Origin: Pseudomonadota bacterium
Lineage (GTDB): Bacteria > Pseudomonadota > Alphaproteobacteria > Caulobacterales > Aquidulcibacteraceae
Direction of reading: 5' to 3'
Length of the DNA stretch: 51,437 nt
NCBI GenBank assembly: GCA_016195245.1
Contig: JACQAC010000057.1
Location: forward strand, 1 to 51,437
Position 1 is the first letter of the stretch, and the number at the start of each line of letters is the position of its first letter. The position numbers and the translations under genes were made by a program. The notes below the pieces were generated by a model. That model made no database searches. It was not told the origin of the DNA and saw only the letters and a list, made by a program, of their open reading frames with translations. Of the stretch, positions 24,501 to 42,063 are shown piece after piece.

Positions 24501-25169
24501 GTGGCGAGAGTATTGATCGTCGAAGACGATCTGAGAACAAGTGAGCTCCTGCGCAGCGGCCTGGCGGAAGCCGGGCACGCCGTGGAAGCGGTGGGCGACG
24601 GTGAGCTTGGCCTCGCAGCGATCCAGGCTGCGCCATTTGATCTTATCATCCTCGACGCGCTGTTGCCGAAGAGAGATGGATGGCAAGTTCTCGAAGAGCT
24701 GCGCCGACAAGGGTGTCAAACGCCGGTCCTCATGCTCTCGGCGCTCGATGGCATTCAACACAGAGTGCGAGGTTTGTCCCTTGGCGCGGATGACTATCTA
24801 ACCAAGCCGTTCTCCTTCGAAGAACTGAACCTACGCGTCAACGCCATCTGCCGTAGACTTTCTCGTGCAGAAACCAGCGGTCTCGGTAACGCCGATGTTG
24901 CACTCGACGAGGCGAACTTGAGCGCGCTGCGAGATGGAGAAGTGATCTCCCTCACCATGAAGGAATTTGCCCTCCTGAAACTGTTGCTGACCTATCAAGG
25001 AGCAATCCTGTCGAAGCAATATATCGCCAAGCAGGTGTGGGACATCGAGGTGGACTCGGAAAGCAACGTCGTTGAGGTAAATATCAGACGGCTTCGACAA
25101 AAACTCGACGATCCGTTTGCCAAAAAGCTCATCTACACCTTACGCGGTCGAGGATATGTCCTCCGCTAG
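24501..25169 (+). CDS. OmpR-family response regulator (CusR/CopR-like)
   Basis: LIVEDD, LIILD, GADDYLTKPFSFEEL, SNVVEVNIRRLRQKLDDPF..KLIYTLRGRGY. Confidence 0.93.
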   Translation: MARVLIVEDDLRTSELLRSGLAEAGHAVEAVGDGELGLAAIQAAPFDLIILDALLPKRDGWQVLEELRRQGCQTPVLMLSALDGIQHRVRGLSLGADDYLTKPFSFEELNLRVNAICRRLSRAETSGLGNADVALDEANLSALRDGEVISLTMKEFALLKLLLTYQGAILSKQYIAKQVWDIEVDSESNVVEVNIRRLRQKLDDPFAKKLIYTLRGRGYVLR

Positions 25170-26592
25170 GGCCGTGTTGCAGCGATGGCTCTCGCGGCTA
25201 CCGCCGTTCTCGAGCCTCTCGTGGCGGCTGGCTGCGTGGAGCGCCGTGGCCTCCATGTTGATTGTCCTTTCCGTTAGCGTGGCGATGTACGGTGCGATGA
25301 CCGCGCAAGTACGCAGCGTGGACGAACAGGTGCTTATGAAGCGTGCGCAGCGCGTCGCGGATATCTTGCAGACGTCCTCAGACATCGCCTTCTGGCTGCC
25401 CCACGAAGTCAGCGAAGACTTGGAAGGTCCACGCCAGGTATTCATGCGCGTTATTGATCGTCGTGGCGTGGTGGTAAACGAAACGCCGCTTATGGCGGGG
25501 GCGGCGCCCGCGGATCTATTTCCAAGTGCGGCCGTCGCAAGTGATGCGCGGCCGATCACGTTCGCCAATGCCCATGGCCGACAGTTTCGCGGCTTGAGCC
25601 TACGGGTCAGGGCGGCCGGCTTACCCTCTGGTGAAGCCACCGTCCAGACCGCGGTGGACGTGAGCGTCGACGAACTTCTTCTCGGGCGCTTTCGCGCTAT
25701 GCTGCTGTCCGTCGTGGCGCCTGCCTTGTTGGCATGCGCTCTGGTTGCCGCCGTCATTGCCGCGACATTGTTGGCGCCACTGCGGCGCATGGCGCGAGAA
25801 GCCGAGACTCTTGGTGGAGATGCCGTGGGCGCGCGGCTGAGCGCCTATGGCGCCGGCGACGAGGTTAGCGATGTCGGGCGCGCCTTCAACGGAGCCCTGG
25901 AGAGGCTTCAACGAGCCCACGAAGCACTGCGGCGCTATGCCGACAATGTCGCCCACGAAATTCGAACGCCGCTGAACCGAATGCTCCTGAAGGCCGAAAT
26001 TGCCGCGCGCGAGCCAAGAACCGCAGAGCAGTACCGCGAGGTTATCGAGGAGCAGGCGCGCGAGTGCGGTGAGTTAGCGCGACTGGTGCAACGGCTTCTG
26101 TTCTTGGCGCGAGCGGAAAATGCGCCAACGTTACCCGAGCGCGCGATGCTTGATGTGGAGGGCGAGCTGGGCGTCTTGCGCAACTATTTCGAGTCAAGTG
26201 CGACGGACGCCGGAATTAGCATTGTGGTTGAATGCCAAGCGATGACTCCGCACGCGTTCGCCGACCGTCTGCTTTTTCAGCAGGCGATCGGTAATCTCGT
26301 AACCAATGCGATCGCCCACGCCAGGGCTGGCGGCGTTGTTCGGGTCGTGGCGCGCCCAGTTTCGTCGGGTGTGGAGGTGGCCGTTATCGACACCGGCTCG
26401 GGCATTGCGGCGGCGGACATTCCTCATGTCTTCGATCGCTTTTATCGCTCGAATCCAAGGCAATCGAATGAGGGAGTGGGTTTGGGTCTCGCCATTGCAA
26501 AGAGCATACTCGACCTTCATGGCGGCAGCATTGCACTAAAGAGCGGAGTGGGAGAAGGCACGACGGTCGTCACGCTCTGGCCGAGTGTTTGA
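25156..26592 (+). CDS. Sensor histidine kinase (CusS-like)
   Basis: ATG 25156 overlaps the regulator stop; two TM helices, HAMP, AHEIRTPL H-box, N/D/F/G boxes. Confidence 0.92.
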   Translation: MSSARAVLQRWLSRLPPFSSLSWRLAAWSAVASMLIVLSVSVAMYGAMTAQVRSVDEQVLMKRAQRVADILQTSSDIAFWLPHEVSEDLEGPRQVFMRVIDRRGVVVNETPLMAGAAPADLFPSAAVASDARPITFANAHGRQFRGLSLRVRAAGLPSGEATVQTAVDVSVDELLLGRFRAMLLSVVAPALLACALVAAVIAATLLAPLRRMAREAETLGGDAVGARLSAYGAGDEVSDVGRAFNGALERLQRAHEALRRYADNVAHEIRTPLNRMLLKAEIAAREPRTAEQYREVIEEQARECGELARLVQRLLFLARAENAPTLPERAMLDVEGELGVLRNYFESSATDAGISIVVECQAMTPHAFADRLLFQQAIGNLVTNAIAHARAGGVVRVVARPVSSGVEVAVIDTGSGIAAADIPHVFDRFYRSNPRQSNEGVGLGLAIAKSILDLHGGSIALKSGVGEGTTVVTLWPSV

Positions 26593-26615
26593 CCCTTCAG
26601 TGCTGGGAAGGTTGA

Positions 26616-28283
26616 ATGAACGCCGGGTCGGTTAGACATTTGCTATCAAGAGCCGCCCTTCGCGCCGACGCTGGCGGCGACGGTTCGGCGCTCGTATTGC
26701 TTCGTTCAGCGCTAATAGAGACCGATGCGTCGCAACATGAACCGATCGCGCTGGCGCTTCGTCGCATTGAAGCGATTGCGGCCGCCGGCATCGCCGAAGA
26801 GCCCTGCAGCTTGGATGAAGTCTTGGAAGAACCGCCGCCTCTTGTCGACGCGACCCTCGCGGCGGCGGTGACGAAGCTTTGCAGCTGGGCGGAGCGCGTT
26901 TGGGCAAGCGAAGAACGCCTGGCTTACTTGAGGCGGCGCGCCGCCACCGAAGGCGGACGCTCTCCCTCGCTGGCGCTAGCCCTTAGCGCCTCCGCTCAAA
27001 GCCTCGCGCGAAACGGACGCTTCGAAATCGCGGTGCCGCTTTGTACGGAGGCGGTGTCGATGTGGTGCAAGCTGATCGATGGCGGCGCCACTCTCCTCGC
27101 AGCGAGGCTAGCGGATTCGCTCCGGTTGCTCGGCGCCGTCGAGTCAGAGCGGGGAAACCTCGAGAAGGGTGTGAGCCTCGGCGCCGAGGCGCGCGATCTT
27201 TTCCTCCGGGAGCTTGATCGGAACGATCGCATCCAAAATCGAATGGGGCTGGGCGCTGCCTTGCATAATCTGGCCGGTGCTTACCTCAAGACAGGTGATG
27301 TTTCGCGCGCAGTCGCCGTGTCGAACGAGGCTATCGCGGTGCGTCGATTGCTCGCCGTGCAGGCGCCAATGGTCTGCGGTTTAGATATGGCGCGCACGTT
27401 GTCGGAGGCGAGTGTGGTGTTCGGCCACGCGGAGCTTTTTGACGACGCGTTTTCTGTCAGCCAAGAGGCGACGGAATTTTTCCGTACCGCCTCGTTAGCG
27501 GAAGTGGCCTATCTGAATCCGTTAGCGACTGCGCTTCGCAATCTGTCGCAGCATGCTTTTGCCGTTGGGCAATACGCTGTTGGTCTTGACGCCACAGATG
27601 AGGAGATTGCGATTTATCGTCGTCGCGGTCATCACGAGGGAAATGATACAACGACCGCACTCGCTGGTGCTCTACACAACAGAGCGTCGCATTTGGCGAT
27701 GTTGGCGCAGAACGAAGAAGCGCTCAAGAGCGTGTCCGAAGCCATTGACACGCAAAGGAGTGCATCAGGCGCGTCGGCGCGTCGGGCCGCCATGGGAGCG
27801 TCGATGCATCTGGCGGGGATTGTCGCGCATCAAGCTGGCCGCGAGGAGGAGGCTTTGGATCGTCTCGCGGAAGCGGTGAAAGTTCGCAACACATTGCGCG
27901 TCGGTGGAGATGCTGAGGCGCAGGTGGACTACGCGCGCTCCTGCAGCGAGCTAGCGGATGCACAATGCGCTGCGGGGCAGTGGGCATTGGCGGTCGAGAC
28001 CAACGAAGAGGCGGTCGCTGCAATGTCCGCGGTCATGCGCCTGCGCGCCAGCAAGTCTGATGTATTCGAATACGCGCGCCTACTCTTGCAAACCGGCAAT
28101 TTGCAGCGCCGCGTTGGCCGGATTAGCGCCGCGATTAGGTCTTATGAGGCCGTGGCGGCGCTGCGCTCGCAATTGCAGGAAATGGAGTTGGACGGAGCTT
28201 TGGCGGACGTTGCCGCGCAACGTTTGATTTCCTGCCTCAGGCGATCGAACGGCGCGAGTGCTGGATCAACGCCGCACACCTGA
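26616..28283 (+). CDS. Tetratricopeptide-repeat protein
   Basis: Repeated LA.AL.NL....G..A...EA...R.L helical units; 23 nt after the kinase, same strand. Confidence 0.75.
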   Translation: MNAGSVRHLLSRAALRADAGGDGSALVLLRSALIETDASQHEPIALALRRIEAIAAAGIAEEPCSLDEVLEEPPPLVDATLAAAVTKLCSWAERVWASEERLAYLRRRAATEGGRSPSLALALSASAQSLARNGRFEIAVPLCTEAVSMWCKLIDGGATLLAARLADSLRLLGAVESERGNLEKGVSLGAEARDLFLRELDRNDRIQNRMGLGAALHNLAGAYLKTGDVSRAVAVSNEAIAVRRLLAVQAPMVCGLDMARTLSEASVVFGHAELFDDAFSVSQEATEFFRTASLAEVAYLNPLATALRNLSQHAFAVGQYAVGLDATDEEIAIYRRRGHHEGNDTTTALAGALHNRASHLAMLAQNEEALKSVSEAIDTQRSASGASARRAAMGASMHLAGIVAHQAGREEEALDRLAEAVKVRNTLRVGGDAEAQVDYARSCSELADAQCAAGQWALAVETNEEAVAAMSAVMRLRASKSDVFEYARLLLQTGNLQRRVGRISAAIRSYEAVAALRSQLQEMELDGALADVAAQRLISCLRRSNGASAGSTPHT

Positions 28284-28296
28284 GCAAGAGCCGCTT

Positions 28297-29598
28297 TCAA
28301 GCGGTGCCGTATTTGGTCTGAATGTTAATCCCGATGCTGCGAAGAAAATCAGTCGGCAATACGCCGCCTGCGCAAATGATCACGGCATCATTCGGAAAAT
28401 GACGCTGACGACCGTTGCGTTCAAGAAGGACGTTTTCCGGTTCGATCTGAATGATGTTGGTCGACAGCAATAGTCGAAGCGCGCCGCTTTCGGCCGCGCG
28501 CGCGATGCGCTCTCGGTTGCGTGGCTTTGCGCGTCCGAGAGCCGCGCCGCGATAGGCCAAGATCACCTCCGCGTCCGTTTCCTCGACCAAGGAGGCGGCC
28601 GCCTCAAGCGCGCTATCGCCGCCTCCGACGACGAGAACGCGCATCCCCGCATATTGTTCGGGGTCGATGAGACGATAAACCACGTGGGGCAGATCTTCTC
28701 CGGGTACGTCAAGCGCACGGGGAGTTCCCCGCCGGCCGATCGCGAGCAATACGCTGCCGGCGCGCACTTCACGCTGCGTGGTTGCGATGGAAAAGACGCC
28801 GCTGACATCTTCGATGCGCGTTACCCGTTCGTCGTAGATGATGTTTGCTCCGCTATCGCGCACGACGTTGGACCAAAATTCCAAGAGCGATTCCTTGTTG
28901 ATCTCGCGAAATTTGACCTCGCCATAACCGGGCAAGGTCGCTGGCTGGGTCATAACGAGCTTGTTGCGGGGAAAATGCGCAACCGTTCCGCCGAAAGTTT
29001 CCTGTTCGATCGTAAGATAGTTCAAGCCGTGTTGCTGTGCGGCGAGACTGGCTGAAATGCCGGCGGGGCCGGCGCCGACAATAACGAGGTCGTAGTCTGC
29101 GCCGTGGGCGCGGGGCAAACGGGCGATCTCATCGACGGCCTGACGGCCTTGTTCGATGGCATTGCGGATGAGGCCCATTCCGCCCAGCTCGCCAGCGATG
29201 AAGACGCCCGGGACGTTGGTTTGAAAATCAGGTCCAACATGCGGCAATTCAATGCCGCGTTTTTCGGTCCCAAACACCAGTTGGATTGCATCGACCGGAC
29301 ATGCGGTCCGGCATGCGCCGTGGCCGATGCATTCTGTAGGGGAAATCAGTACCGCCTTTCCGCTAATGCGGCCCAGCACATCGCCTTCGGGACACGCCGC
29401 TACGCACGCGCCACAGCCAATGCACTTCAACGGATCGATCTTTGGATGCAGCGACGTGGGCTGATCCAGGCCCGCTTCAAGCGCTGCCTCGCGGGCAAGA
29501 CGCGCTTCGTTCTCGCGCCGTCCGCGCCGCACAATGTAGAAGCCCACAATGCCAACAAGCGGAAGAACGTACCAAAGCAAGCTTGGGTCAAGCGCCAT
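28297..29598 (-). CDS. Membrane-anchored ferredoxin-domain FAD/NAD(P)H oxidoreductase (thioredoxin-reductase-like fold)
   Basis: N-terminal TM; CIGCGACVAACP and CIGHGACRTACP; IVGAGPAG (FAD) and VVGGGDSA (NAD(P)H) motifs. Confidence 0.88.
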   Translation of the reverse strand: MALDPSLLWYVLPLVGIVGFYIVRRGRRENEARLAREAALEAGLDQPTSLHPKIDPLKCIGCGACVAACPEGDVLGRISGKAVLISPTECIGHGACRTACPVDAIQLVFGTEKRGIELPHVGPDFQTNVPGVFIAGELGGMGLIRNAIEQGRQAVDEIARLPRAHGADYDLVIVGAGPAGISASLAAQQHGLNYLTIEQETFGGTVAHFPRNKLVMTQPATLPGYGEVKFREINKESLLEFWSNVVRDSGANIIYDERVTRIEDVSGVFSIATTQREVRAGSVLLAIGRRGTPRALDVPGEDLPHVVYRLIDPEQYAGMRVLVVGGGDSALEAAASLVEETDAEVILAYRGAALGRAKPRNRERIARAAESGALRLLLSTNIIQIEPENVLLERNGRQRHFPNDAVIICAGGVLPTDFLRSIGINIQTKYGTA

Positions 29599-29608
29599 TG
29601 GCGTAGCC

Positions 29609-30778
29609 TCAGGCCCCCGGAACGTTCAACTCAGTGGCGGCGGCGCGCAGACGCTGCTGGGCTGCTCCATCGCCGTTGAACGCGCGCAATGCAGATTGCA
29701 GCGCGGCGCCCGCGCGATCGGCCTGCCCGAGCACCATGCGCGAACGCATCAGACGCACCCATCCGTCCGCGTCACGAGGGTTCTGGGCCAACCGTTGTTC
29801 CAGGCCGTCCACCATTCCCGCGATCATTTGCTGTTGCGCTTCCGGCGATGCCTGCTGCGCCTGAGCAACAACGCCCGCGGACAGCGGAGGCGCGCGCGAG
29901 AGGGATGCCGCCGGCGCTGGCGGCATCCGCCCTGCGATGTTCAAGCCAATCTGACGCGCTGCGGTTTCGGCGCTCTCCCGCATGCGCGGCGCCCATTGCG
30001 AGTCTGGCGCAGCAGCGCGAACGCCCGCAATCCAATCGTCAATCGCACCGCGCGCGTCGCCGCTCTGAGATTTCGCGAGAGCGAGATAATAGCGTGCTCG
30101 CTCGTCATGTGCATCGCGAGAAAGAGCGGTTTGAAAATCCTGGCGCGCGGCCGCTGTGACTGAGCCGCCATTGGCTTGCGTGACCGCCTCGGCGAGCGCG
30201 GACTTGTAGCTTGCTTCCTGTGGCGCGAGAGCGACCGCCCGGCGGTATGCGTCGACAGCCTCCGGGAAGTGATTGGTTTCAAAATAAGACCAGCCGAGCA
30301 TGCGCCAGCCTTCCGCATCGTTGGGCGAGCTCTCCAGCCGCGCGCGCAAACGCTGGATCATGGTGTCAACGTCAGGGAGTGATTGCGCGGCGGCCGCGGC
30401 CGGCGCGGCGTCGGCGCCGCGAGCGGCGCTTTGCATTTGTGGTGCGCCGGTCGCGGCATAGAGTACAGCCGATCCTAGCACGACAATGAGCGCCACAGCG
30501 GCGGCGGTGACGCGGTCGAACTGAGCGCTTGCGGGAGACGCGACAGGGGCGGCGGGGGGTGCTTCGAGAATGCGCCGTTCGACTTCGGTGCGCAACTCAA
30601 CCGCCGCACTGGCATCGACATCGCCTGCTGCTTCGTCGCGCGCGATCGCATCAAGTTGCGCCTTGTAAACATCCACGGACGTCGCCGCGGCCGGTGGAGC
30701 GCGGCGCGTACGCAGAAATGGCAATGCAACAAGCAAGCCGGCACACACAGCGAGTGCGGTCAGCGCAAACCAAAGCAT
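29609..30778 (-). CDS. ccmI: Cytochrome c biogenesis protein CcmI/CycH
   Basis: N-terminal TM, VYKAQL..I.RD...G, second TM, TPR region (PNDAEGWRMLG), LAQNPRDADGW. Confidence 0.9.
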   Translation of the reverse strand: MLWFALTALAVCAGLLVALPFLRTRRAPPAAATSVDVYKAQLDAIARDEAAGDVDASAAVELRTEVERRILEAPPAAPVASPASAQFDRVTAAAVALIVVLGSAVLYAATGAPQMQSAARGADAAPAAAAAQSLPDVDTMIQRLRARLESSPNDAEGWRMLGWSYFETNHFPEAVDAYRRAVALAPQEASYKSALAEAVTQANGGSVTAAARQDFQTALSRDAHDERARYYLALAKSQSGDARGAIDDWIAGVRAAAPDSQWAPRMRESAETAARQIGLNIAGRMPPAPAASLSRAPPLSAGVVAQAQQASPEAQQQMIAGMVDGLEQRLAQNPRDADGWVRLMRSRMVLGQADRAGAALQSALRAFNGDGAAQQRLRAAATELNVPGA

Positions 30779-31266
30779 CAGGAAACTCCAGTCCCAGGGG
30801 GCGGCTGCTTCGCATTCGTCAGCAGCTGATTCAGTCGGCGGCGCTCGTCAGCGCTAAGAGGCGGCGGCGCTGCTTCGCTTCGCCTGCGGACCTGGGAGAA
30901 AAGACCCAGAAGTGCCAGCGCAAAGATGGCAAACGGCGCGATCCAGAGCGCCCAAGTATCAGGTTGCCAGGGCGGACGCAGCAAGACGAAGTCACCGTAC
31001 CGGGCGACGATGTAGTCGATCACTTGCCGATCGCTATCACCCGCCATCAGGCGTTCGCGCACCAAGAGACGCATGTCGTGCGCAAGCGGAGCGTTGGAAT
31101 CGTCAATTGTCTGGTTCTGACAAACGACACAGCGCAGGTGCTCGCTGATGTCGCGTGCCCGCGCCTCAAGCGCCGGATCGCGCAACATCTCCGAGGGCTC
31201 AACGGCGAGTGCAGGCGCGGCCATCACGAAGAGGCAAACGGCAAGAATTGGCTTGAGCAATTTCAT
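30778..31266 (-). CDS. ccmH: Cytochrome c biogenesis protein CcmH/CycL
   Basis: LRCVVCQNQTIDDSNAPLA, RYGDFVLLRPP. Confidence 0.95.
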   Translation of the reverse strand: MKLLKPILAVCLFVMAAPALAVEPSEMLRDPALEARARDISEHLRCVVCQNQTIDDSNAPLAHDMRLLVRERLMAGDSDRQVIDYIVARYGDFVLLRPPWQPDTWALWIAPFAIFALALLGLFSQVRRRSEAAPPPLSADERRRLNQLLTNAKQPPPGTGVS

Positions 31267-31799
31267 GGCTCATTCTCAAGCTGGGTCATAATCGGCTCGA
31301 TCGTCTGTTGCCACACCTCCGGTGTTATTGGGCCGACTTGTTTGAACCGAATCCTGCTGTGACGGTCCAGGATAAAGGTCTCCGGCGCCCCAGTGACACC
31401 AAGTTCAAGCGCAAACCGACCGCTCTCGTCGCTGCCGATGCGTGTAAACGGGTCGCCGGCCTGCGCCAGATACGCCCGGCAGTCGGCGGGCGATTCCTTC
31501 CAATTGATCCCGTAGATCGGAACATGTCGTTCGCTTGCGAGCGCGACGAGCGTCGGATGCTCCTGACGGCAAGGACCGCACCACGACGCAAACACATTCA
31601 CCAGCACGACCTGTCCTCGAACGTCATTGCTGACGAATTCGGCGTCTCCCTGACGCACAGGTGCCAGCGTGAACTGTGGCATTGGCTGGTTGATCAATGC
31701 AGACGGCAGGATCGAAGGGTCGTGATCAAGGCCGAACCAGAACGCCGTCGCAACCACCACAAAGAGTCCGACGGGAATGAACAAGATCAAGCGGTTCAT
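31263..31799 (-). CDS. ccmG: Thiol:disulfide interchange protein CcmG/DsbE
   Basis: Start MNRLILF (ATG 31799), LPSALI, NVFASWCGPCRQEHP, GVTGAPETF. Confidence 0.93.
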   Translation of the reverse strand: MNRLILFIPVGLFVVVATAFWFGLDHDPSILPSALINQPMPQFTLAPVRQGDAEFVSNDVRGQVVLVNVFASWCGPCRQEHPTLVALASERHVPIYGINWKESPADCRAYLAQAGDPFTRIGSDESGRFALELGVTGAPETFILDRHSRIRFKQVGPITPEVWQQTIEPIMTQLENEP

Positions 31800-33778
31800 G
31801 GCGATGTGGCAGCCGCCATGACCGCCGACTTCGCGGAAGCCGTTGTCGCAGAACGCAGCCCGCCGGACCAGGAGAGCGCGCCTCCGAGCGCCATGATCGC
31901 GGCGCCCAGCCAAATCCAAATCGCCAGTGGGTGGCGATAGAGCCTCACCGTCCACTTGCCATCGTCGCCACGCTCACCAAGGGCGGCATAGGTATTGGCG
32001 ACTAAGTTGCTGCGCACCGAAGCCTCCGTCGTTTGCATCTCGCGATCGGGGTAAAAGCGCCGCTCTGGCGTTAGAAGAAATGCGATATCTTCTCCGTGTG
32101 AGAAGGAGAGCACCGAGCGTTCGGCTTCGTAGTTCGAGCCTGTACCGGTCGTCACTGACAGCATCTGCACGTCGTAGCCCGCGAAGCGCAGGCTTTCGCC
32201 GGGTTGCAGGCTGGAAGTCAGTTCCTGCTTCCAGGCATTGGCCGCCACGAGCCCCGCCAGCAACAGACCGACCCCCAAATGCGCGAACACAACGCCGTAA
32301 ACCGTGCGGGGTAGGGCAAGCGCGAGGCGCGTGGACTCAAGCCAGGGCGCTTTGCCAATGCGAATGCGTTTGGCGACGATCGAGACCGACGCGGCCATGA
32401 TCCAAACCGCCAGGGCGATGCCCACGGCAGCGACTGGTGTGCGTGCGCCGGTAAGCACCAGCGAGATCAAGCCCGCAAGGGCGCCGGCAATTGCCGCCCA
32501 ACCCAATTTCCGCAGACCATTGGCGAGCGTATCGCTGCGCCACTTCAGCATTGGCCCCACTGCCATGCCGGCAAGAACGGGCGCGACGAGCGGCACGAAG
32601 GTCAGCGCATAGAAAGGGGCGCCAACCGAAATTCTATCGCTTCCTAGAAGCTCGATCAGCAGCGGATAAAATGTGCCGATAAAAACCGTGGCCATAGCCG
32701 TCACGATCAGCGCGTTGTTGAGGATCAAGCTTCCTTCGCGGCTGACGATGGAGAAGGGCGCGCCAGATCTGAGATTGTTGGCGCGCAGTGCGTAGAGCAG
32801 CAGGCCGCCGCCGGTCGCGACGCCAAGCAGAAGTAGGATGAAGACGCCGCGTTGTGGGTCGACCGCAAAGGCATGCACGCTCGTCAGCACGCCCGAGCGC
32901 ACGACAAAGGTGCCGATGAGGCTGAGCGAGAACGTCAATATGGACAGCAGCAACGTCCAGCGAACAAAGGATTCGCGTCTTTCCATCACGAGAGCGGAGT
33001 GGAGCAGTGCGGTGCCAAGCAGCCACGGCATCAGAGAAGCGTTCTCGACCGGGTCCCAGAACCACCAGCCACCCCAGCCGAGTTCGTAGTACGCCCACAA
33101 CGACCCAAGCGCGATGCCAGTCGTCAAGAACACCCACGCAGCGAGAATCCACGGCCGCGCGTGGCGCGCCCACGCAGCATCGGCGCGCCCCTCAAGCAAA
33201 GCGGCGACGGCAAATGAAAAGGCTGTCGAGAACCCAACATAGCCAAGATAAAGCATCGGAGGATGCGATGCGAGGCCGGGGTCTTGCAGGAGAGGATTGA
33301 GCCCGTTTCCTTGCAACGGCGCCGGATCCAACCGCGCGAACGGGTTCGACGTGAAGATCAGGAACGCAAGAAAGCCGACGCCAATGAGCCCCTGCGTCGC
33401 CAACACACGCGCGCGCATCGTTGATGGAATAGTGCGGCCAAGGAGGGCTACCGTCGCGCCGAACACCGCCAGGATCAGCACCCAGAGCAGCATCGAGCCT
33501 TCATGGTTTCCCCAGGTGCCGGCAAGTCTGTAGATGAGCGGCTGGCTCGTGTGGGAATTGGTGGCGACCACCTCAACGGAGAAGTCGGAGACCGCGAAAG
33601 AGATCATCAAGCAGCCGAACGCGACTCCAACGAAGAAAAGTTGCGCTATCGCGCCGACATCGCCGAACGCCATCGCGCGCGCATCGCGCCGCGCTGCGCC
33701 GATCAGCGGCAGGATCGTTTGCGCGAGCGCAATCATCAACGCCAGAATCAACGCGAAGCGCCCGATCTCTGGAATCAT
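31796..33778 (-). CDS. ccmF: Heme lyase subunit CcmF
   Basis: WGNHEGS, HPPMLYLGY, WAYYELGWGGWWFWDPVENAS, SVHAFA. Confidence 0.97.
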   Translation of the reverse strand: MIPEIGRFALILALMIALAQTILPLIGAARRDARAMAFGDVGAIAQLFFVGVAFGCLMISFAVSDFSVEVVATNSHTSQPLIYRLAGTWGNHEGSMLLWVLILAVFGATVALLGRTIPSTMRARVLATQGLIGVGFLAFLIFTSNPFARLDPAPLQGNGLNPLLQDPGLASHPPMLYLGYVGFSTAFSFAVAALLEGRADAAWARHARPWILAAWVFLTTGIALGSLWAYYELGWGGWWFWDPVENASLMPWLLGTALLHSALVMERRESFVRWTLLLSILTFSLSLIGTFVVRSGVLTSVHAFAVDPQRGVFILLLLGVATGGGLLLYALRANNLRSGAPFSIVSREGSLILNNALIVTAMATVFIGTFYPLLIELLGSDRISVGAPFYALTFVPLVAPVLAGMAVGPMLKWRSDTLANGLRKLGWAAIAGALAGLISLVLTGARTPVAAVGIALAVWIMAASVSIVAKRIRIGKAPWLESTRLALALPRTVYGVVFAHLGVGLLLAGLVAANAWKQELTSSLQPGESLRFAGYDVQMLSVTTGTGSNYEAERSVLSFSHGEDIAFLLTPERRFYPDREMQTTEASVRSNLVANTYAALGERGDDGKWTVRLYRHPLAIWIWLGAAIMALGGALSWSGGLRSATTASAKSAVMAAATSP

Positions 33779-33893
33779 TGCGATGCCTCCACAATTTCAA
33801 AGCAGTAGCTGCTTCTTGAGTGGTGGTAGTCAGTAACGTATTGGATAGAGTCAAGCGTTAGTGGCGGTACGCATCAGGAGGGCGCGAACGAGC

Positions 33894-34790
33894 ATGAGTA
33901 GTGACAGCGCCCTCGCGGGATCGGTAAGCGTAACGCGCGCCAGGCGTCGCTTTGATGACGGGCCAATTGCGCTTGTCATTTTTGTTATCTGCGTTGTCGG
34001 CGTGCTGTATTTGGCTTGGCAGCATCGCGGTGAGAGTTGGTTGGACCCTCGCCATGGGTGGGGTTACCCGCTTGGAATCGTCGGCGGATCGATGATGCTG
34101 GCGTTGCTGCTTTACCCTCTGCGCAAGCGCGCCAAGTCAATGCGAACTTTGGGGAGCGTGGCGACGTGGTTTCGCTTGCACATGATCCTCGGCATTGTTG
34201 GGCCCGTCTTGGTCGTTGTTCATTCCAACTTTGAAATTAAGTCGCTCAATGCAGCTGTCGCGCTGTATTCCATGTTGATCGTGTCTGGGAGCGGCATAGT
34301 CGGACGGTACTTTTACGGACGCATCCATCGAGGCCTGTACGGCAGCAAGGTTGAGGCGCGTGAACTGATTGCTGAGGCGCAAGGGTTTCGCCGAGACATG
34401 GATGTCGATGTCAGGGCGGCGGCGCAAAATGTTGTCCTTGCCGCCTTGGAGCGCGAGGCGATGACCCAATCCCGCGGCTTCTTCTCAGCGGTGGCGCATG
34501 CAGTTTCTCTTAACGTACATGCCGCACGCAGCGAGCGGGAACTCATTGCCGACTGCGATCGCGAGTTGGAAAGCTGGGCGAGCCAGGAACGCTGGCCGGC
34601 TCGTGTGCGATCCAGGCGGATAGCAGAAGCGCATCGCAAGATACGCCGCTACCACGACGCGGTGCGCCGGGTTGGATCGCTTGCGGTTTACGAGCGCCTA
34701 TTTTCGGCGTGGCACGTACTCCACTTGCCTTTGTTTTTCATGCTGATCCTCACCGCGCTCATTCACGTCGTCGCGGTTCACCTTTATTAG
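33894..34790 (+). CDS. Inner-membrane protein, cytochrome-b/ferric-reductase-like (His-rich TM helices)
   Basis: About five TM helices; WFRLHM, VVHSNF, SGIVGRYFY, WHVLHLPL, IHV. AGGAGG upstream of ATG 33894; alternative GTG at 33861. Confidence 0.75.
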   Translation: MSSDSALAGSVSVTRARRRFDDGPIALVIFVICVVGVLYLAWQHRGESWLDPRHGWGYPLGIVGGSMMLALLLYPLRKRAKSMRTLGSVATWFRLHMILGIVGPVLVVVHSNFEIKSLNAAVALYSMLIVSGSGIVGRYFYGRIHRGLYGSKVEARELIAEAQGFRRDMDVDVRAAAQNVVLAALEREAMTQSRGFFSAVAHAVSLNVHAARSERELIADCDRELESWASQERWPARVRSRRIAEAHRKIRRYHDAVRRVGSLAVYERLFSAWHVLHLPLFFMLILTALIHVVAVHLY

Positions 34791-34798
34791 CGGCGCAA

Positions 34799-36364
34799 AT
34801 GCGGTGGATACTACGTCTAGCAGCCGTCCTGATCGCGGCGATGACGCTGTTTGGCGTAGCCCAGGCGCAATCCGTTATAGAGCGGCTCGTTTCGCCAGGA
34901 CCCCTCGCGGCCGCGCACGCAAACGTCGAGGGGCGTTGCGCGTCGTGTCACGCGCCATTTAACAGAACAGCGCAAGCGCAACTCTGTGTCACGTGCCATC
35001 GACCGATCGGCGCAGATCTCGCTGCTCATACCGGCTTTCATGGGCGCGACCGCGCGGCTTCGACAGCAAGCTGCGGTTCATGCCATTCGGATCACCACGG
35101 GCGCGCGAACGCACTGGTGCGGTTCGATGCTCGAACCTTCGATCACACGCAAACCGATTATCCTCTTCACGGCGCCCACGCGAGTGTGACGTGCGTGTCC
35201 TGCCATCCGGTTGGCCGCAAGTACCGGCTCGCATCAACGGCGTGCGTCGACTGCCATCGAACAGACGAACCCCACCACGGACGCCTCGGTGTGCGCTGCA
35301 GTTCATGCCACACAGACGAGAGCTGGCATCAAATTCGGTTTGATCACTCGAGCACGCAATTTCCTTTGGTGGGCGCCCACCTGCGCGCGCGATGCGTTAC
35401 CTGCCACGCCAACGAGCGCTACGACGGCACGCCTACAACGTGCGTCGCGTGTCACCAGAGTGACGACGCGCACCATGGAAGTCTCGGTCCGAATTGCGGC
35501 GAGTGCCATTCCGCCGTCGATTGGCACGCGCAACGCTTTGACCACAGCCGAACGCGCTTTCCATTGAGAGGGCGTCACGCTGCAATTCAGTGTTCGGCGT
35601 GTCACGCGCAGCCCGCGGGACAAGTGCGCCTGCCAACGGACTGCCTATCGTGCCATCGCGCTGACGATCAGCGTGCGCACCAGGGGCATAACGGCGCCGC
35701 CTGTCAGGAATGTCATTCAGAGACAGACTGGCGGCGCTCCAACTTCGATCACACGCGGCAGACGCAGTTTCCACTCCGCGGGCGGCATGCCGGCCTGACC
35801 TGTCAGCAGTGTCACGTTCAGCCGGCTCGGCAGGTGCGCCTCGCGATGACCTGCATATCTTGCCATCGCGCCGATGATGCGCACGCCGGTCAGGAGGGCG
35901 CGCAATGTGAGCAGTGTCATAGCGACGCCGGCTGGACGACCTCGGTGCGTTTTGACCATGGACTGACGAGGTTTCCCCTCATTGGCGAACACGCCAGCGC
36001 CACATGTGCGTCTTGTCATCAAACACGTCGCTTCAAAGATGCTCCGGAGCAGTGTGTAACGTGCCACCGCGATGACGATCGCCACGAAGGACGGCTCGGA
36101 GTGAACTGCGGCGCGTGCCATAACCCCGTCGCGTGGGCCCGTTGGTCGTTTGACCATGATCACCAGACGCATTTTCCTCTGACCGGTGCGCACGCAGGCC
36201 TGCAATGTGAAGCGTGTCATACGCAGCGCATGCGTGATCGCGTCCATCAATCGGATGCCTGCATTACTTGTCACCGGGCTGACGATGCGCACCGCGGCGA
36301 GTTCGGACCCGAGTGCGGCCGCTGCCATACCACCGAGATGTTCCGCGGCGCGCGGCGTTTGTAA
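34799..36364 (+). CDS. Exported multiheme cytochrome c, 21 CXXCH
   Basis: Signal peptide MRWILRLAAV...AQA; 21 CXXCH counted by hand, in seven tri-heme units linked by FDH..T.(F/Y)PL.G.H. Confidence 0.95.
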   Translation: MRWILRLAAVLIAAMTLFGVAQAQSVIERLVSPGPLAAAHANVEGRCASCHAPFNRTAQAQLCVTCHRPIGADLAAHTGFHGRDRAASTASCGSCHSDHHGRANALVRFDARTFDHTQTDYPLHGAHASVTCVSCHPVGRKYRLASTACVDCHRTDEPHHGRLGVRCSSCHTDESWHQIRFDHSSTQFPLVGAHLRARCVTCHANERYDGTPTTCVACHQSDDAHHGSLGPNCGECHSAVDWHAQRFDHSRTRFPLRGRHAAIQCSACHAQPAGQVRLPTDCLSCHRADDQRAHQGHNGAACQECHSETDWRRSNFDHTRQTQFPLRGRHAGLTCQQCHVQPARQVRLAMTCISCHRADDAHAGQEGAQCEQCHSDAGWTTSVRFDHGLTRFPLIGEHASATCASCHQTRRFKDAPEQCVTCHRDDDRHEGRLGVNCGACHNPVAWARWSFDHDHQTHFPLTGAHAGLQCEACHTQRMRDRVHQSDACITCHRADDAHRGEFGPECGRCHTTEMFRGARRL

Positions 36365-36382
36365 GGTTTGTTATCTTACAAA
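36358..36382. promoter_or_regulatory. Candidate regulator-binding palindrome, copy 2 (upstream of the second cytochrome)
   Basis: TTTGTAAG-N9-CTTACAAA perfect 8-bp arms; near-identical to the reverse complement of 24322-24342. Confidence 0.55.
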
Positions 36383-36518
36383 GATTTTCGCGCAGCATCC
36401 ACGCGCGCTGAGTTAGGGTCATGTTAAGCGGACTCGAAAAGAGTCACCGACGTCGTTGTCGGGGGAGAGGTCGAACGACGCGGGGTTCGATCGCAGGAAG
36501 AAGTTCGGTAGGCGCTGC

Positions 36519-38423
36519 ATGGGAACTGCACTCCCTATTGCGAAGCGATTGCAAGAATGGGTGCGCGGGTCCGCGCGCCTTGTTCCCGTTCTCTTGCTCG
36601 TGTTGACCGCGCTTGCGTTTGCTGACGTTTCCGCAGCGCAGACGCGTGGGCGCCCGCAGGCGAGTTTCGACCATGACAGAACCGGTTTTTCGCTGACGGG
36701 CGCGCACCGGCGCTTGAATTGCACTGAGTGTCACGCGAACGGTGTGTTCACGGATGCGCCCAATACTTGCGCGGGTTGTCACAACGGCTCACGCGCGATG
36801 GGTCGTAGCGCAACGCACGTGCCGACGACGCAGCAGTGCGGCGCATGTCACGGTACCGAAAACTATCGGCTGATCCGCTTCGAGCACAGCGAGGCGATTG
36901 GCACCTGCGTGTCTTGCCACGACGGACGCCGCGCAGGAGGCAAACCGGCCAACCATCCGCAAACGAGCAACGATTGCGAGTCCTGCCATACGACCGGAAT
37001 ATGGACGAGCGCTCGGTTCGATCACTCCGGCGTCACGGCGGCTTGTGCGAGCTGTCACAACGGCCGCGATGCGTCGGGCAAGCCCGCAAATCACGTGCCC
37101 TCGAGCAACACCTGTGAAGACTGCCACACCACGGCGACCTGGGCGAACGCGCGCTTTGATCACGCGAGCGCCACGGGGACATGCGTAAGCTGCCACAATG
37201 GTACATCCGCGACGGGGCGCTCACCGTCGCACTTGTCGACCACGACATCCTGTGAAAGCTGTCACGTCACCACGAATTGGACGACGGTCCATTTTGATCA
37301 TACTGCGGCGACCGGCACTTGCGCGAGTTGCCACAACGGGACTCGTGCTCCGGGCAAGCCGGCGAACCACATTCCCTCAAGCACGACATGTGACGATTGC
37401 CATACGACCACGACTTGGGCGAACGCGCGCTTTGACCACGCGAGCGCTACGGGGACTTGCGCAAGTTGCCACAATGGCACGACCGCCACCGGTAAACCCG
37501 CAACCCACTTGCCGACGACAAACGCGTGTGACGACTGCCATGTGACGACCAACTGGACGACTGTTCGCTTCGACCATGCCGGGGTCACCGGAACCTGCGT
37601 GAGTTGTCACAATGGAACGACGGCCGCAGGGCGATCAGCCAATCACCTGCCTACGACGACAACGTGCGACGATTGTCACGTCACAACCAATTGGACGACA
37701 GTGCATTTTGATCACGCGAGCGCCGTCGGCACCTGCTTCAGCTGTCATGATGGGACGCGCGTTGCGGGCAAGCCCGCCAATCACATGGCGACGAGCAACA
37801 CCTGCGATGATTGCCATGTCACGACGAGCTGGACAAACGTCCGATTTGACCACAACGGCGTCACTGGTTCGTGCGCGAGCTGCCATAACGGCACGACGGC
37901 AACGGGTAAGACGCCAACGCACATTCAGACCTCCGCGGATTGCGGCGATTGTCACTCGACACTTGCCTGGACGCCCGCCCGGTTTGACCACGCGTCGATA
38001 ACTGGCTCGTGCGCAACCTGTCACAACGGTTCGTCGGCGACGGGACGGCCAACCAATCACTTCACCACCTCGCTGGGCTGTGAGGATTGCCACCTCACAA
38101 CGGCGTGGACGCCGATCGTATTCCGCCACACATCGCCAGATTATCCGGGCGATCACCGGAGCAGCGTAACCTGCGTGATGTGCCACCGCAGCAATGCGCA
38201 GACGATTGCTTGGCCGAACGCCGCGTACGCGCCGGATTGTGCAGCCTGCCACGCCAACAACTATCGCTCCGATCCTCATACCAAGTACGGCAACGTGCGC
38301 TACACGGTTAGCGAACTGCGCGACTGCGCGGGCGCGTGCCATATCTACAGCGACAGTTCGATGACGACGATCCTGACGCGCCGAAATTCCCACCACAGGG
38401 CCAGCGACGGCGGATTCGATTGA
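36519..38423 (+). CDS. Exported tandem-repeat multiheme cytochrome c, 23 CXXCH plus 1 CXXXCH
   Basis: Hydrophobic signal (LVPVLLLVLTALAFADVSAA); ten 46-aa di-heme repeats; terminal CAGACH. Start uncertain (ATG 36519 chosen). Confidence 0.95.
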   Translation: MGTALPIAKRLQEWVRGSARLVPVLLLVLTALAFADVSAAQTRGRPQASFDHDRTGFSLTGAHRRLNCTECHANGVFTDAPNTCAGCHNGSRAMGRSATHVPTTQQCGACHGTENYRLIRFEHSEAIGTCVSCHDGRRAGGKPANHPQTSNDCESCHTTGIWTSARFDHSGVTAACASCHNGRDASGKPANHVPSSNTCEDCHTTATWANARFDHASATGTCVSCHNGTSATGRSPSHLSTTTSCESCHVTTNWTTVHFDHTAATGTCASCHNGTRAPGKPANHIPSSTTCDDCHTTTTWANARFDHASATGTCASCHNGTTATGKPATHLPTTNACDDCHVTTNWTTVRFDHAGVTGTCVSCHNGTTAAGRSANHLPTTTTCDDCHVTTNWTTVHFDHASAVGTCFSCHDGTRVAGKPANHMATSNTCDDCHVTTSWTNVRFDHNGVTGSCASCHNGTTATGKTPTHIQTSADCGDCHSTLAWTPARFDHASITGSCATCHNGSSATGRPTNHFTTSLGCEDCHLTTAWTPIVFRHTSPDYPGDHRSSVTCVMCHRSNAQTIAWPNAAYAPDCAACHANNYRSDPHTKYGNVRYTVSELRDCAGACHIYSDSSMTTILTRRNSHHRASDGGFD

Positions 38424-38430
38424 GGTCCTT

Positions 38431-40611
38431 ATGCGTTATATGAAGTCACTCGGGACTGTGACGGCTGGTGCGGCCGCTCTTGCGTCCGTTGCTCCCTCCG
38501 CCCTGGCTCAGCCAGCGCTGGATCGGGTCTTGTCGGACGCGACGGTGGAAGAGGGGCAGCACTGCGCTGTCTTGCAGGTCAACTTCAATTTCCCCGTTCG
38601 CTATCTCAGTCACTTTCCGGTTTCGAGCGGCGATGACTTGCGCGTGCGCATCCGTGCAGCTGACCGCGATCACGACAGCGCCATGCAACATCGTGAGGCG
38701 GTGCGGCCCCCGGAAAGTCAGCTCGCTCATATCAGCGAAATCCAGTTTGACGGCGACCGCCCAGACGGGGCGACGTTGTCTTTCCAGTTCGGCGCATCAA
38801 CCCAGTATCGCGTAGGCCAAGGGCCAGACTTCCGCAGCATCCGGGTTGCTATCAACGATGGCGTGGACGCGGCCTCATGTTCGCCGGAGTCCCACCCAAG
38901 TCTACCAAACGGCGCCGCCGCGGCGGTGTCACAACCAACGCCAGTGACCGTGCCGCAGGTCGACGTTGGAGCGGGCGATCCGCTCCTCACGGAGGCTCGC
39001 GCGGCCATGACGGCGGGCGACAACGCCCATGCCGTGCAGTTGCTCACGCGCATTTTGGAGGCGCCAGACTCGCCGAGTTCGCGGGATGCGCAGGAATTGC
39101 TTGGCGTGGCGCGCGAACGCGCGGGTCAACGTGCGCACGCTCGCGCGGAATATGATGAATACCTGCGCCGCTATCCAACCGGCGAAGGTGCGGATCGCGT
39201 GCGCCAACGTTTGGCCGCGCTTGTGGCAATGGATATGCCTCAGCCGAGGCCAGAGCTGCGTCGCGCCGGACGGCAGGAGCGGCGAGGCGGGGCGCAGTGG
39301 GAAGCAAGCGCAAGCTTGTCGCAAATCTACTTCCGGGACGATGCGACCTACACCTACGAAGATTTGTTTGGACCGCCGTCGCCGACCACGACGGATCACC
39401 AAACGAACCAGAACGAACTTCTGTCTGCCCTTGATGCTGACGTGGCAATTGCAACCAACTCCGTCCATGCGCGCCTGCGCGCCTCTGGGGCCTACAGCAA
39501 CGATTTCAGGGCCGGCGGCAAAGACGAAACCAGTTTGAGCGCGCTCTATTTGGAAGTTGGCGACGCCCAAGACCGGTTGGTCGTTCGAGGGGGGCGCCAA
39601 ACCCGCAGCACTTCGGGAGTGTTCGGTCGCTTCGATGGCGGCGTGGTTTCGCTGCGTCCAATGGATCGCATCAGAGTCGATGTTATTGCCGGTTATCCGG
39701 TGGATACACCGCGCGATCTCACGTTTGATCCGCACCGTTCTTTCTACGCGGCCAGCGTCGACTACCAGGGCGAGAAATGGGACGCCAGCGTCTATTGGCT
39801 TCGTCAGACGTCGTACGGGTTTGTCGATCGCAACGCGGCAGGCGTGGAGCTGCGTTATGTGAGCGATCGGATGAACCTGTTCGCGCTCGCGGACTATGAT
39901 GTTCACTATAATGAACTCAATATCGGACTCGCGAACGCGACGTTCACGCTCCCCGGCGATACAACACTCAATCTCGGCGTCGACTATCGCAAGGCGCCGA
40001 TGCTGGCGACGATCAACGCATTGATTGGACAGACGGTTGGCTCTCTGGACGAACTGCGCGCGACCTACACGGACACCGAGATTGAACAGCTTGCGTTGGA
40101 TCGTACTGCCCAGAGCACAACCTACTTTGCGGGGATCGCGCACCCGATCAGCCAACGCTTTTCGATCAATGTTGACGCGACGCTTTCGAACTTGGATGGC
40201 ACTCCCGCGTCCGGCGGCGTTCCTGCGACGACCGCAACCGGTCAAGAATTATACGGCTCCATCCAGCTTATCGGCACCAGCCTTTTCAAGGAGGGCGATC
40301 TCGGCATTATCGGCCTGCGCTACGCCGACACGTCGACTTCGGTGCGGTATGGATTTGACCTTAACACACGCTACCCCGTGAGCCGTGCGCTTAAGATCAA
40401 TCCGCGGTTCCGGTTGAGCTACCGGGAAAACAAGAACGACAATGGCACCCAGTTGTCGGCTCGCCCCTCGTTCAGGCTGAATTACCAAGTCGGGCATCAC
40501 GGATCGCTGGAAGCGGACGTAGGCGCCGAATGGCAACGCACCTCAAACTCATCGATGCGTGAAGAGAGCTGGGATTATTTTGTGACGGCTGGCTACCGGT
40601 TGGATTTCTAG
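38431..40611 (+). CDS. Outer-membrane beta-barrel protein with N-terminal periplasmic and TPR domains (putative conduit porin)
   Basis: Signal peptide; TPR ([30 protein letters not shown]); long region of alternating beta-strands; C-terminal GYRLDF with terminal Phe. Confidence 0.82.
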
Positions 40612-40624
40612 GACCGGAGTCGTT

Positions 40625-41851
40625 GTGAGATCTCAAGACCTGCAGGTATTCGAAGCGGCGGTTGGCGCTATCCGTGAGGAGGGGCGTTACCGGGTGTTCG
40701 CCGACATCATGCGCGAGCGCGGGCGTTTCCCGCACGCGACATTGCGGCGCGAGGACGGTTCGACCCGCGACATCGTGGTGTGGTGCTCGAACGATTATCT
40801 AGGCCAAGGCCAGAGCCCTGAAGTTCTGGATGCGGCGCATGCGGCGCTGGACAAGGTGGGCGCCGGGGCCGGCGGCACGCGCAACATTTCCGGCACCACC
40901 AGCTATCACGTCGATTTGGAGCGGGCGCTTGCCGAGCTTCACGGCAAGCAGACGGCGCTCTTGTTCACGTCGGGCTATGTGTCCAACGATGCGACGCTGT
41001 CGACGCTGGCGCAGCTTTTCCCCGATCTCTGGATTTTCTCCGATGAGCAAAACCACGCCTCGATGATCGAAGGCATCCGCCGCGCCAAGTGTGAGCGGCG
41101 GATATTCAGGCACAATGATCTTCAGCATCTGGAAGCGCTGATCAACGAGGCGCCAGCCGAGGCGCCGAAGCTGATCGCCTTCGAGAGCGTCTATTCGATG
41201 GACGGCGACACGGCCCCGATCGAAGCCATTTGCGACATCGCTCAAGCCTATGGCGCGATGACCTATCTGGATGAAGTGCATGGGGTTGGGCTTTACGGCC
41301 CCACCGGCTGGGGCGTCGCCGAGCGTGACGGGGTGATGCACCGGGTTGACTTCATCGAAGGCACCCTCGCCAAGGCGTTTGGCGCGATGGGCGGGTATGT
41401 CACCGGCCCGGCGGCGGCGATGGACGCTATCCGCTCCACGGCTTCGGGGTTTATCTTCACCACCTCGCTGGCGCCGTCGATCGCGGCGGCGGCGCTGGAG
41501 AGCGTGCGCATCGTGCGCGAGTGCCCGCACCTGCGCGACCGCTTGGCCGAACGCGCGGAGCGCTTGAAAACCATGCTGTTCGAGGCCGGCATTCCGGTGA
41601 TGTCGGAATCGACCACCCACATCGTGCCGGTGTTGGTGGGCGATGCGGCGCGCTGCAAGAAGATCTCCGACATCCTGCTCTATGACCACGGCATTTATGT
41701 GCAGCCGATCAACTATCCGACGGTGCCCAAGGGTACTGAGCGGCTGCGTATTACGCCGTCGCCCTTCCACGACGATGCGTTGATGGAGCGCCTGGTGGCT
41801 TCGCTCAAAGCGGTTTGGGCGATGTGTCCGGTGCATACCTCAGCGCCTTGA
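40625..41851 (+). CDS. hemA: 5-aminolevulinate synthase
   Basis: [63 protein letters not shown]. Confidence 0.97.
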
Positions 41852-42063
41852 GCGCGGACGCTCCAGACGAGGTTATTTTCGAAATCACCAAGATTGGTGA
41901 CGTGCAGCGGGTCGCGGTGGTGCATGTCGCCACCGGTACAGAGGTTGTGTTTCAGACGCCAGCGACCGCGGCGCTCGCCGATCTGCGGGCGCTTGGCAGG
42001 CAATTGCTCAAGCGGAAACTCGCGGAAGGCGATCAGCCGAAAGGGGCTGGCATCATTGTCTAG
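41848..42063 (+). CDS. Small hypothetical protein (DUF6898-like)
   Basis: EVIFE...IG...RVA.V...TGTEV; probable TTG start overlapping the hemA stop. Confidence 0.6.

Follow-up and report, generated by a model that had tools for sequence, protein, structure and literature searches.

A flavoprotein with an NADPH-type site accompanies PCC3 porin-cytochrome clusters and suggests an outward electron path

The window studied here, positions 1 to 51,437 of contig JACQAC010000057.1 (assembly GCA_016195245.1) of a bacterium from the Aquidulcibacteraceae (Caulobacterales), carries a porin-cytochrome cluster of type PCC3, i.e. an inner-membrane protein, two multiheme cytochromes c and an outer-membrane barrel. 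Across genomes and metagenomes, the membrane protein of such clusters is accompanied by a membrane-anchored ferredoxin-flavoprotein with an NADPH-type site, which suggests that this flavoprotein is a near-universal fifth part of PCC3. A first-pass annotation of the window had listed its gene as a redox module of this particular cluster; the gene is present, and its standing was understated, since it appears to belong to the family at large and not to be a local extra. We lean slightly towards an outward, quinone-independent wire that would lead from NADPH via FAD, iron-sulphur (FeS) clusters, two b-hemes and 45 c-hemes to the outside. Since 2017, PCC3 has figured in the literature as an untested candidate iron oxidase; a conserved fifth component that bears an NADPH-type site opens a cheap and direct assay of donor and direction. 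To our knowledge, the known conduits of Gram-negative bacteria are quinol-linked.

The co-occurrence of flavoprotein and membrane protein was counted in 301 genomes from the order of genome G479 (order sample) and in 401 genomes of a phylum sample. Partial flavoprotein matches (15 and 11 genomes, respectively) and short homologues of the membrane protein were excluded. In the order sample, the PCC3 membrane protein occurs in 16 genomes, and the same 16 contain a full-length flavoprotein on the same contig. The two genes stand head-to-head at a distance of 226-357 bases in 15 of these genomes, and are 8.4 kb apart within the same operon in the remaining one. The sole other full-length flavoprotein match among the 301 genomes is frameshifted and lies near a contig end, and the membrane protein was not found there. 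In the phylum sample, both proteins are full-length in the same five genomes; two further PCC3 genomes from a class sample carry the flavoprotein too, and for two genomes the link between the two genes spans a contig break. Metagenomic evidence comes from the best 80 of 571 confirmed flavoprotein loci, ranked by likeness to the protein of the window. The membrane protein is encoded in 21 of 22 long loci (at least 4 kb on each side), in 11 of 12 loci of medium length and in 22 of 46 short ones; together with a multiheme cytochrome it was found in 21 of the 22 long loci and in 54 of the 80. Furthermore, an Atlas cluster of 751-residue proteins (74 members) matches both flavoprotein and membrane protein by predicted structure, with TM-scores of 0.87 and 0.57, and is likely a fusion of the two. 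Among 72,556 plasmid records, the only membrane-protein match is plasmid NC_018749.1 of the cultured Bacteroidota species Emticicia oligotrophica. Its operon (L157:4908-16706) comprises ccsA, the genes for the inner-membrane protein, the flavoprotein, a 23-heme and a 40-heme cytochrome, and a gene for a 538-residue protein, for which no match to the barrel profile of the window was found. Literature searches yielded no paper that names the flavoprotein as a partner; the supplementary tables and Figure 6 of PMC5566968 and subscription papers may bear on this point.

The flavoprotein begins with a single helix, which is followed by basic residues, a dicluster ferredoxin and an FAD/NAD(P)-binding part of thioredoxin reductase (TrxR) fold. 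The latter is circularly permuted: the FAD segment that is usually C-terminal comes first, at residues 125-160. The closest solved relatives are Bdr/YpdA (E 1.5e-23) and ferredoxin-NADP reductase (E 2.6e-14). With TrxR-type ferredoxin-NADP reductases and Bdr/YpdA the protein shares the FAD and NADPH domains and the absence of the TrxR motif CXXC (there is no Cys between residues 101 and 408); it differs from them in the permutation and in its fusion to a His-ligated dicluster ferredoxin and a membrane anchor. A true TrxR was ruled out by the missing CXXC and by a TIGR01292 score of 77.7 (cut-off 343.45), and the TIGR04018 score of 155 is far below the cut-off of 339.9. In the second FeS cluster, a His replaces a Cys. 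The elements GGGD, Arg350 and the His-ligated motif CxxHxxCxxxCP are invariant in all 72 loci analysed, and Arg356/Lys358 are conserved in 71. We take the combination of GGGD, Arg350 and Arg356/Lys358 to be the pattern of NADPH sites, and cofactor binding and an NADPH/ferredoxin oxidoreductase activity are predicted from these motifs. Five published peptides of Slit_0866 from Sideroxydans ES-1 match the flavoprotein of the window at 32 of 49 residues (compared by eye), and by this likeness Slit_0866 is its probable orthologue.

The membrane protein comprises 298 residues with five hydrophobic segments, WX3HX13H at positions 92-110 and 273-291, and SGXXG at positions 133-137. This agrees with the description of the PCC3 membrane protein in PMC5566968 (cited here, like all other papers, from its accessible parts), which gives about 300 residues, five transmembrane (TM) helices, WX3HX13H on TM3 and TM5, and SGXXG on TM4. 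The pairs His96/His110 and His277/His291 are invariant in 116 homologues, and these four residues are predicted to bind two b-hemes. Two His pairs about 13 residues apart on TM3 and TM5 are also the pattern of the FRD/NOX/MsrQ superfamily, and this His pattern is what ties the protein to the ferric reductases as a putative relative. The structural model (predicted local distance difference test score, pLDDT, of 84.7) contains a large cytoplasmic helical hairpin at about 138-270; by the positive-inside rule, both this hairpin and the flavoprotein should be cytoplasmic. Fold searches with the model returned generic helical bundles only, which is not evidence of a different fold. They gave no Foldseek match to FRD structures at E ≤ 0.001, and the Atlas Ferric_reduct cluster aligned with a TM-score of 0.34, which is under the bar. 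PF01794 was not among the 25 families shown for the 116 homologues, 14 of which matched the cytochrome b561 family (best E 1.6e-4), and no solved relative was found in a sequence search of the PDB. Short homologues of the membrane protein, present in 16 genomes of the phylum sample (L031-L048, L052), lie beside cytochromes with 6-12 hemes, and the stretches read around them contain neither a barrel nor the flavoprotein. Several of these short homologues adjoin sensor kinases.

In the outward path, the anchored flavoprotein would take electrons from cytoplasmic NADPH, and its FAD would pass them through two FeS clusters to a heme b at His96/His277 on the cytoplasmic side. They would then move to a heme b at His110/His291, cross the periplasm along 21 hemes and run along 24 further hemes through and beyond the 22-strand barrel, where they would reduce acceptors outside the cell without quinones. 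NADPH, near -0.32 V, lies far below ubiquinone at about +0.1 V. The path would allow a heterotroph that has ubiquinone only to reach acceptors that ubiquinol cannot reduce. If flavoprotein and membrane protein are coupled, the flow should be outward, at the expense of proton-motive force. It would be aided by the inside-negative potential, whereas inward flow to NADP+ would be opposed and, on textbook values, would need donors near -0.47 V. Since outward electrons spend membrane potential instead of making it, a reductive service is expected rather than respiration; the wire might mobilise or detoxify Fe, Mn or Cu, dump surplus reductant or possibly reduce O2. The flavins of TrxR-type ferredoxin-NADP reductases have potentials of -0.240 and -0.285 V (PMC11121358, PMC9137726). 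MsrQ offers a precedent, in which a cytosolic NADH oxidoreductase passes electrons to a membrane heme and on to the periplasm; ubiquinone is not the donor (PMC12525009). The proposed arrangement resembles MsrQ, NOX and FRD in its cytoplasmic NAD(P)H flavin module, its His-ligated b-heme in the membrane and its acceptor on the far side. It differs in that the flavin module has the TrxR fold and two FeS clusters instead of the fold of ferredoxin-NADP reductase, in the five helices and the long cytoplasmic hairpin of the membrane protein, and in a giant cytochrome as acceptor. The first-pass annotation had held that the direction of flow cannot be read from sequence; the flavoprotein now provides an argument for outward flow, which is not a proof. 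Cofactor binding, physical contact of the parts, the locations of the cytochromes and the direction are what we infer here.

We extend the proposal to the whole family more tentatively, with confidence just short of even: PCC3 would be a five-part, quinone-independent exporter that combines a split NOX-like inlet, made up of the NADPH flavoprotein and the diheme membrane protein, with the longest known heme chains and is driven outward with the help of the membrane potential. If so, aerobic, ubiquinone-only heterotrophs of several phyla would reduce low-potential minerals, metals or partner cells, and genome surveys that score PCC3 clusters as candidate iron oxidases would read the direction the wrong way round. 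The window is a compact example of PCC3 in an uncultured heterotroph in which no other multiheme cytochrome was found; better test beds are the plasmid operon of the cultured E. oligotrophica and Sideroxydans ES-1 (Slit_0866-0870).

Several observations weigh against an NADPH-fed exporter. TrxR-type ferredoxin-NADP reductases can run either way. Neither sequence nor fold searches linked the membrane protein significantly to structures of ferric reductases/NOX or cytochrome b561, and the case for heme binding is its four His residues. In the flavoprotein, 24 of 72 loci have Ser or Ala in place of Cys62 of the first cluster. The co-occurrence counts are not independent events, because kin share genes. 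For the same reason of shared ancestry, the correlation of pairwise identities across 39 loci (Spearman 0.48 for flavoprotein and membrane protein, 0.57 for barrel and membrane protein) was not used as support. In the long metagenomic locus L143 and in genome G1173, the flavoprotein occurs alone, with no membrane protein found, and no fusion of the two was seen among 16 long homologues scanned of 150 listed, nor in the 80 best metagenomic loci. In ES-1, the better-expressed cluster Slit_1446-1449 has no adjoining flavoprotein gene; its neighbours encode an HD hydrolase and an aldolase. Slit_0866 was sparsely detected and, with missing values, was up on magnetite versus Fe(II)-citrate late in growth (log2 +2.4 and +2.6), which would fit an oxidative role at least as well. 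In CL21, the ability of cells to oxidise iron goes along with higher expression of the copy-2 membrane-protein gene, and according to the same source (bioRxiv 2025.02.27.639646) no PCC3 has been characterised biochemically. Finally, the flavoprotein gene of the window closes the ccm operon, as a role in maturation would have it.

The published model reverses the flow: the wire would import electrons from Fe(II), Mn(II), reduced humics or minerals, and the membrane protein would reduce the quinone pool. The flavoprotein would then serve a side branch, for example the formation of NADPH from donors of very low potential. This model, proposed in PMC5566968, is favoured by the frequency of PCC3 in Gallionellaceae and Leptothrix (PMC9900912, PMC13386937), by the responses of CL21 and Slit_0866 just described and, for the host of the window, by Nar and a cbb3 oxidase as possible sinks and by its occurrence in groundwater sequencing runs. 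We nevertheless consider it unlikely. Both PCC3 clusters of ES-1 are down on Fe(II) compared to thiosulfate (PMC8788666), and most PCC3 holders are not known metal oxidisers, though some are Mn oxidisers (PMC5566968). The model leaves unexplained why 16 of 16 and 5 of 5 PCC3 genomes have the NADPH-type flavoprotein, and inward transfer to NADP+ would have to overcome the redox gap as well as the membrane potential.

A second alternative assigns the flavoprotein to assembly or upkeep of the wire, as a source of reductant for heme ligation or for reduced hemes, with the working flow passing through quinol. The gene ends a ccmF-G-H-I operon in the window and in G114, G068, G062 and G366, and ccm genes lie near several other PCC3 loci. 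In 15 of the 16 genomes of the order sample, however, the flavoprotein faces the membrane-protein gene with no ccm gene between; it accompanies a CcsA-type system in Emticicia, and its likely fusion partner is the membrane protein, not a Ccm protein. A role in assembly appears improbable.

Least probable is an NADPH-fed chain that would mainly turn O2 into superoxide or peroxide on the cell surface, in the manner of a long-range NOX and in the service of indirect Mn/Fe oxidation or defence: it shares all evidence for the inlet with the export reading, PCC3 holders include Mn oxidisers and a large heme peroxidase with RTX repeats adjoins the cluster in G114 (L016:2-5194) and L065 (L065:1-1689), but O2 can be reached without a wire of 45 hemes, and the peroxidase was not found in the host genome (81% complete) and occurs in only one of the other stored loci. 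The peroxidase of G114 and L065, of the animal heme type, resembles the Mn-oxidising MopA.

The block itself is, judged by its sequence, a real, intact and regular PCC3 cluster and an ordinary member of the family (Table 1). He et al. (2017; PMC5566968) defined PCC3 by four genes, very high heme numbers and 22-39 residues per heme; the four-gene definition was kept and the function called untested in PMC9900912, bioRxiv 2025.02.27.639646 and PMC13386937, and PMC13013709 applies the label to Geobacter-type conduits. The first-pass annotation had described two divergent operons with 44-45 hemes and a PCC3-type layout, and both descriptions hold: gene positions, heme counts, motifs and heme density agree. 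The membrane protein, the predicted periplasmic cytochrome, the predicted outer cytochrome and the porin follow each other in the order of PCC3, which also recurs in the betaproteobacterial-type loci found by profiles. Further likenesses to published PCC3 are the 21-heme subunit, which equals the family median, the TSAG-rich repeat, and 22 barrel strands, as given for Leptothrix cholodnii (PMC5566968). Differences are second copies of ccmFGHI and hemA, a CusRS-like regulatory pair and a tRNA-linked island; and where PCC3 papers describe four parts with a quinone link, a conserved NADPH-type flavoprotein is found here to accompany the family.

Table 1. Features of the PCC3 block and its borders in the window.
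Feature	Position	Strand	Basis and remarks
tRNA-Ser(GGA)	23770..23859	+	ARAGORN; likely integration site and left island edge (inferred)
OmpR-type response regulator, nearest CusR/CzcR heavy-metal group	24501..25169	+	TIGR01387 247.8 bits, below cut-off 279.2
Sensor histidine kinase, CusS/CzcS heavy-metal subfamily	25156..26592	+	TIGR01386 302.8 bits, above cut-off 292.55
TPR-repeat protein, peripheral	26616..28283	+	Pfam TPR_12
FeS/FAD flavoprotein (2x[4Fe-4S] ferredoxin + TrxR/ferredoxin-NADP reductase/Bdr fold), membrane-anchored	28297..29598	-	Pfam Fer4 + Pyr_redox
ccmI	29609..30778	-	TIGR03142 above cut-off; PF23914
ccmH	30778..31266	-	PF03918
ccmG/dsbE	31263..31799	-	TIGR00385 above cut-off
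ccmF, second genome copy	31796..33778	-	TIGR00353 above cut-off; 49% to housekeeping copy on contig C90
PCC3 inner-membrane protein, 5 TM helices	33894..34790	+	WX3HX13H twice, SGXXG
21-heme cytochrome c, triheme repeats	34799..36364	+	21 CXXCH; predicted periplasm-spanning subunit
23(+1)-heme cytochrome c, 23-residue repeat	36519..38423	+	23 CXXCH + CX3CH near C-terminus; predicted outer subunit
Outer-membrane protein: beta-sandwich (34-142), TPR (184-268), 22-strand barrel (289-725)	38431..40611	+	AlphaFold2 model
hemA (5-aminolevulinate synthase), island copy	40625..41851	+	TIGR01821 above cut-off
Probable assembly mis-join, island hemA to housekeeping mucR-glyA-rib exit	41860..41861		congener gene order, contig pieces, depth

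MtrCAB, MtoAB and PioAB, which consist of decahemes, a 26-strand barrel and a quinol-linked inlet of CymA type, likewise lead a heme chain through an outer-membrane barrel. Their identity with the block was rejected, in line with the first-pass annotation, since the cytochromes carry 21 and 23 hemes and score only 20 and 85 with TIGR03508 (cut-off 192.2); the barrel, with 22 strands, is narrower than that of MtrB. PCC4 has a related five-helix membrane protein, and in three PCC4-like loci (L049, L050, L051) an FAD/FeS protein of about 800 residues with Pyr_redox, cNMP-binding and Fer4 domains is encoded directly before the membrane-protein gene; it may be a cyclic-nucleotide-sensing version of the same inlet. 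Unlike PCC3, PCC4 uses three periplasmic cytochromes with 4, 5 and 10 hemes and no outer giant cytochrome (PMC5566968), and its 800-residue partner lacks the N-terminal ferredoxin arrangement. The heme numbers of the block also exclude PCC4 as its identity.

The 21-heme cytochrome has 24.8 residues per heme and 53 His residues, the 23(+1)-heme cytochrome 27.6 residues per heme and 44% Thr/Ser/Ala/Gly (TSAG). Shuffled sequences of the two contained 0.3 CXXCH motifs on average and four at most (2000 shuffles). A terminal CX3CH occurs in 24 of 136 open reading frames (ORFs) with at least 10 hemes across the loci. Both proteins have N-termini that resemble signal peptides, and no lipobox cysteine was seen by eye; the 21-heme subunit is predicted to be periplasmic and the 24-heme subunit to be outer. 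They look like plain wires, since the linkers offer sufficient His residues for a bis-His ligation of the hemes and contain few Met. Sequence searches of the PDB found no solved relative of either beyond E 6e-4 to 7e-4; the weak match of the 23(+1)-heme cytochrome (E 7e-4) is to chain 6r2q_A, which we take to be MtrA. Among 28,192 six-frame ORFs of the host genome (81% complete), these two cytochromes are the only proteins with at least three CXXCH. Outer cytochromes with 54-62 CXXCH occur in L056, L059, L054, L061 and L029; in L029, a 55-heme gene and a cut 33-heme gene flank a separate N-terminal barrel domain.

The presumed porin was modelled by AlphaFold2 as a barrel of 22 strands (counted from the DSSP list) with a mean pLDDT of 89, mostly above 90 in the barrel, so that the barrel postulated from sequence is supported by a model. 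Its fold matches are outer-membrane barrels. The N-terminal domain may sit in the lumen of the model, since alignments with TonB-dependent receptors start at residues 21-28; in three loci this domain is a separate ORF. No solved relative was found in a sequence search of the PDB, and the profile finds no MtrB chain at E ≤ 0.01.

A heterotrophic host from the Caulobacterales, as assumed in the first-pass annotation, is supported. The closest locus belongs to a metagenome-assembled genome titled Terricaulis sp. (Caulobacterales), with a barrel identity of 67%. In the 81% complete host genome, Nar, cbb3, a second heme-copper oxidase and ubiG were found, and menD, mqnC, RuBisCO and a photosynthetic reaction centre were not found; the host is present in groundwater sequencing runs, and no RNA run is listed for the stretch. 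It was overstated that such a conduit is unexpected in heterotrophs of this kind, as PMC5566968 already lists PCC3 in Alphaproteobacteria not known for metal redox. A full-length barrel gene was found in 3 of the 147 other family genomes and in 1 of 79 genomes of the genus (L001 and the stretch of G114 counted once); three weak matches in the family search were rejected as TPR-only. All three family holders have the membrane protein, two cytochromes (21-29 hemes), the barrel, ccmFGHI, the flavoprotein and a two-component pair, and the cluster sits at different chromosomal places in the three. The response regulator of the window has orthologues (48-52% identity) beside the PCC3 cluster in G114, G068 and G062, as does the histidine kinase (39-40%); the TPR protein has a 34% match at the G114 cluster only and none in the stretches of G068 and G062. 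The CusRS-like pair likely ties the expression of the cluster to metals; the divergent promoter regions showed no conserved FNR/FixK box.

The block is likely an island, since it starts after tRNA-Ser; in two congeners with complete or near-complete genomes, the aminotransferase gene that neighbours this tRNA is followed by other genes. The cluster had been called self-contained with its own maturation. This stands for CcmFGHI, i.e. the ligation half only; housekeeping CcmA, B, C and E and a second CcmF, G and H are encoded on other contigs of the host, and the right flank is probably mis-joined. The extra CcmFGHI and hemA likely raise the capacity to make 45 hemes per wire. Contig C16 ends with 140 bases identical to the start of hemA (ATG in C16, GTG in the window), and contig C121 begins with 126 bases identical to its end. 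In congeners, the order is C16 genes, hemA, mucR, glyA (glyA after hemA in four, C16 genes before it in three mapped stretches). Over hemA, the depth of the contig is 12.6 versus 6.1-7.5 in run X1 and 8.0 versus 4.6-5.7 in run X2, and contig pieces end at 41860 in both; these runs may be the source of the assembly. As hemA is a collapsed two-copy repeat, DNA to the right of 41860 was probably mis-joined within the same genome, so that mucR, glyA and the rib genes follow the wrong hemA copy; a real rearrangement is less likely. The island then probably continues into C121, with a PepSY membrane protein and a split copper ATPase; the latter, a copper-exporting P-type ATPase in two frames (L073:1378-3637), lies just past the probable true exit of the island hemA. 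Over its whole length, the island hemA is near-identical to the housekeeping copy, with one differing base at 41309, whereas the pair in G114 shares only 80%; this points to gene conversion or a recent duplication. A chimera with another organism is not supported by depth, G+C content or the congeneric locus: the depth of the block equals that of the host mucR/glyA DNA, and in a run from another study pieces of the cluster and of mucR/glyA occur at 92-98% identity and equal depth.

Contig C150 of the host (2498-2746) retains the remains of another PCC3 barrel gene, 82 residues long, 54% identical and interrupted by one stop, where mobile and broken genes abound; this remnant suggests that a second PCC3 cluster was lost. 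At 44052-45012 of the window, nrdR is matched no further than residue 102-104 and continues into a ribD with the reductase domain only, a possible frameshift or fusion. Outside the island, 19927-21975 encodes a phosphocholine-specific phospholipase C (TIGR03396 above cut-off) with a Tat-like signal.

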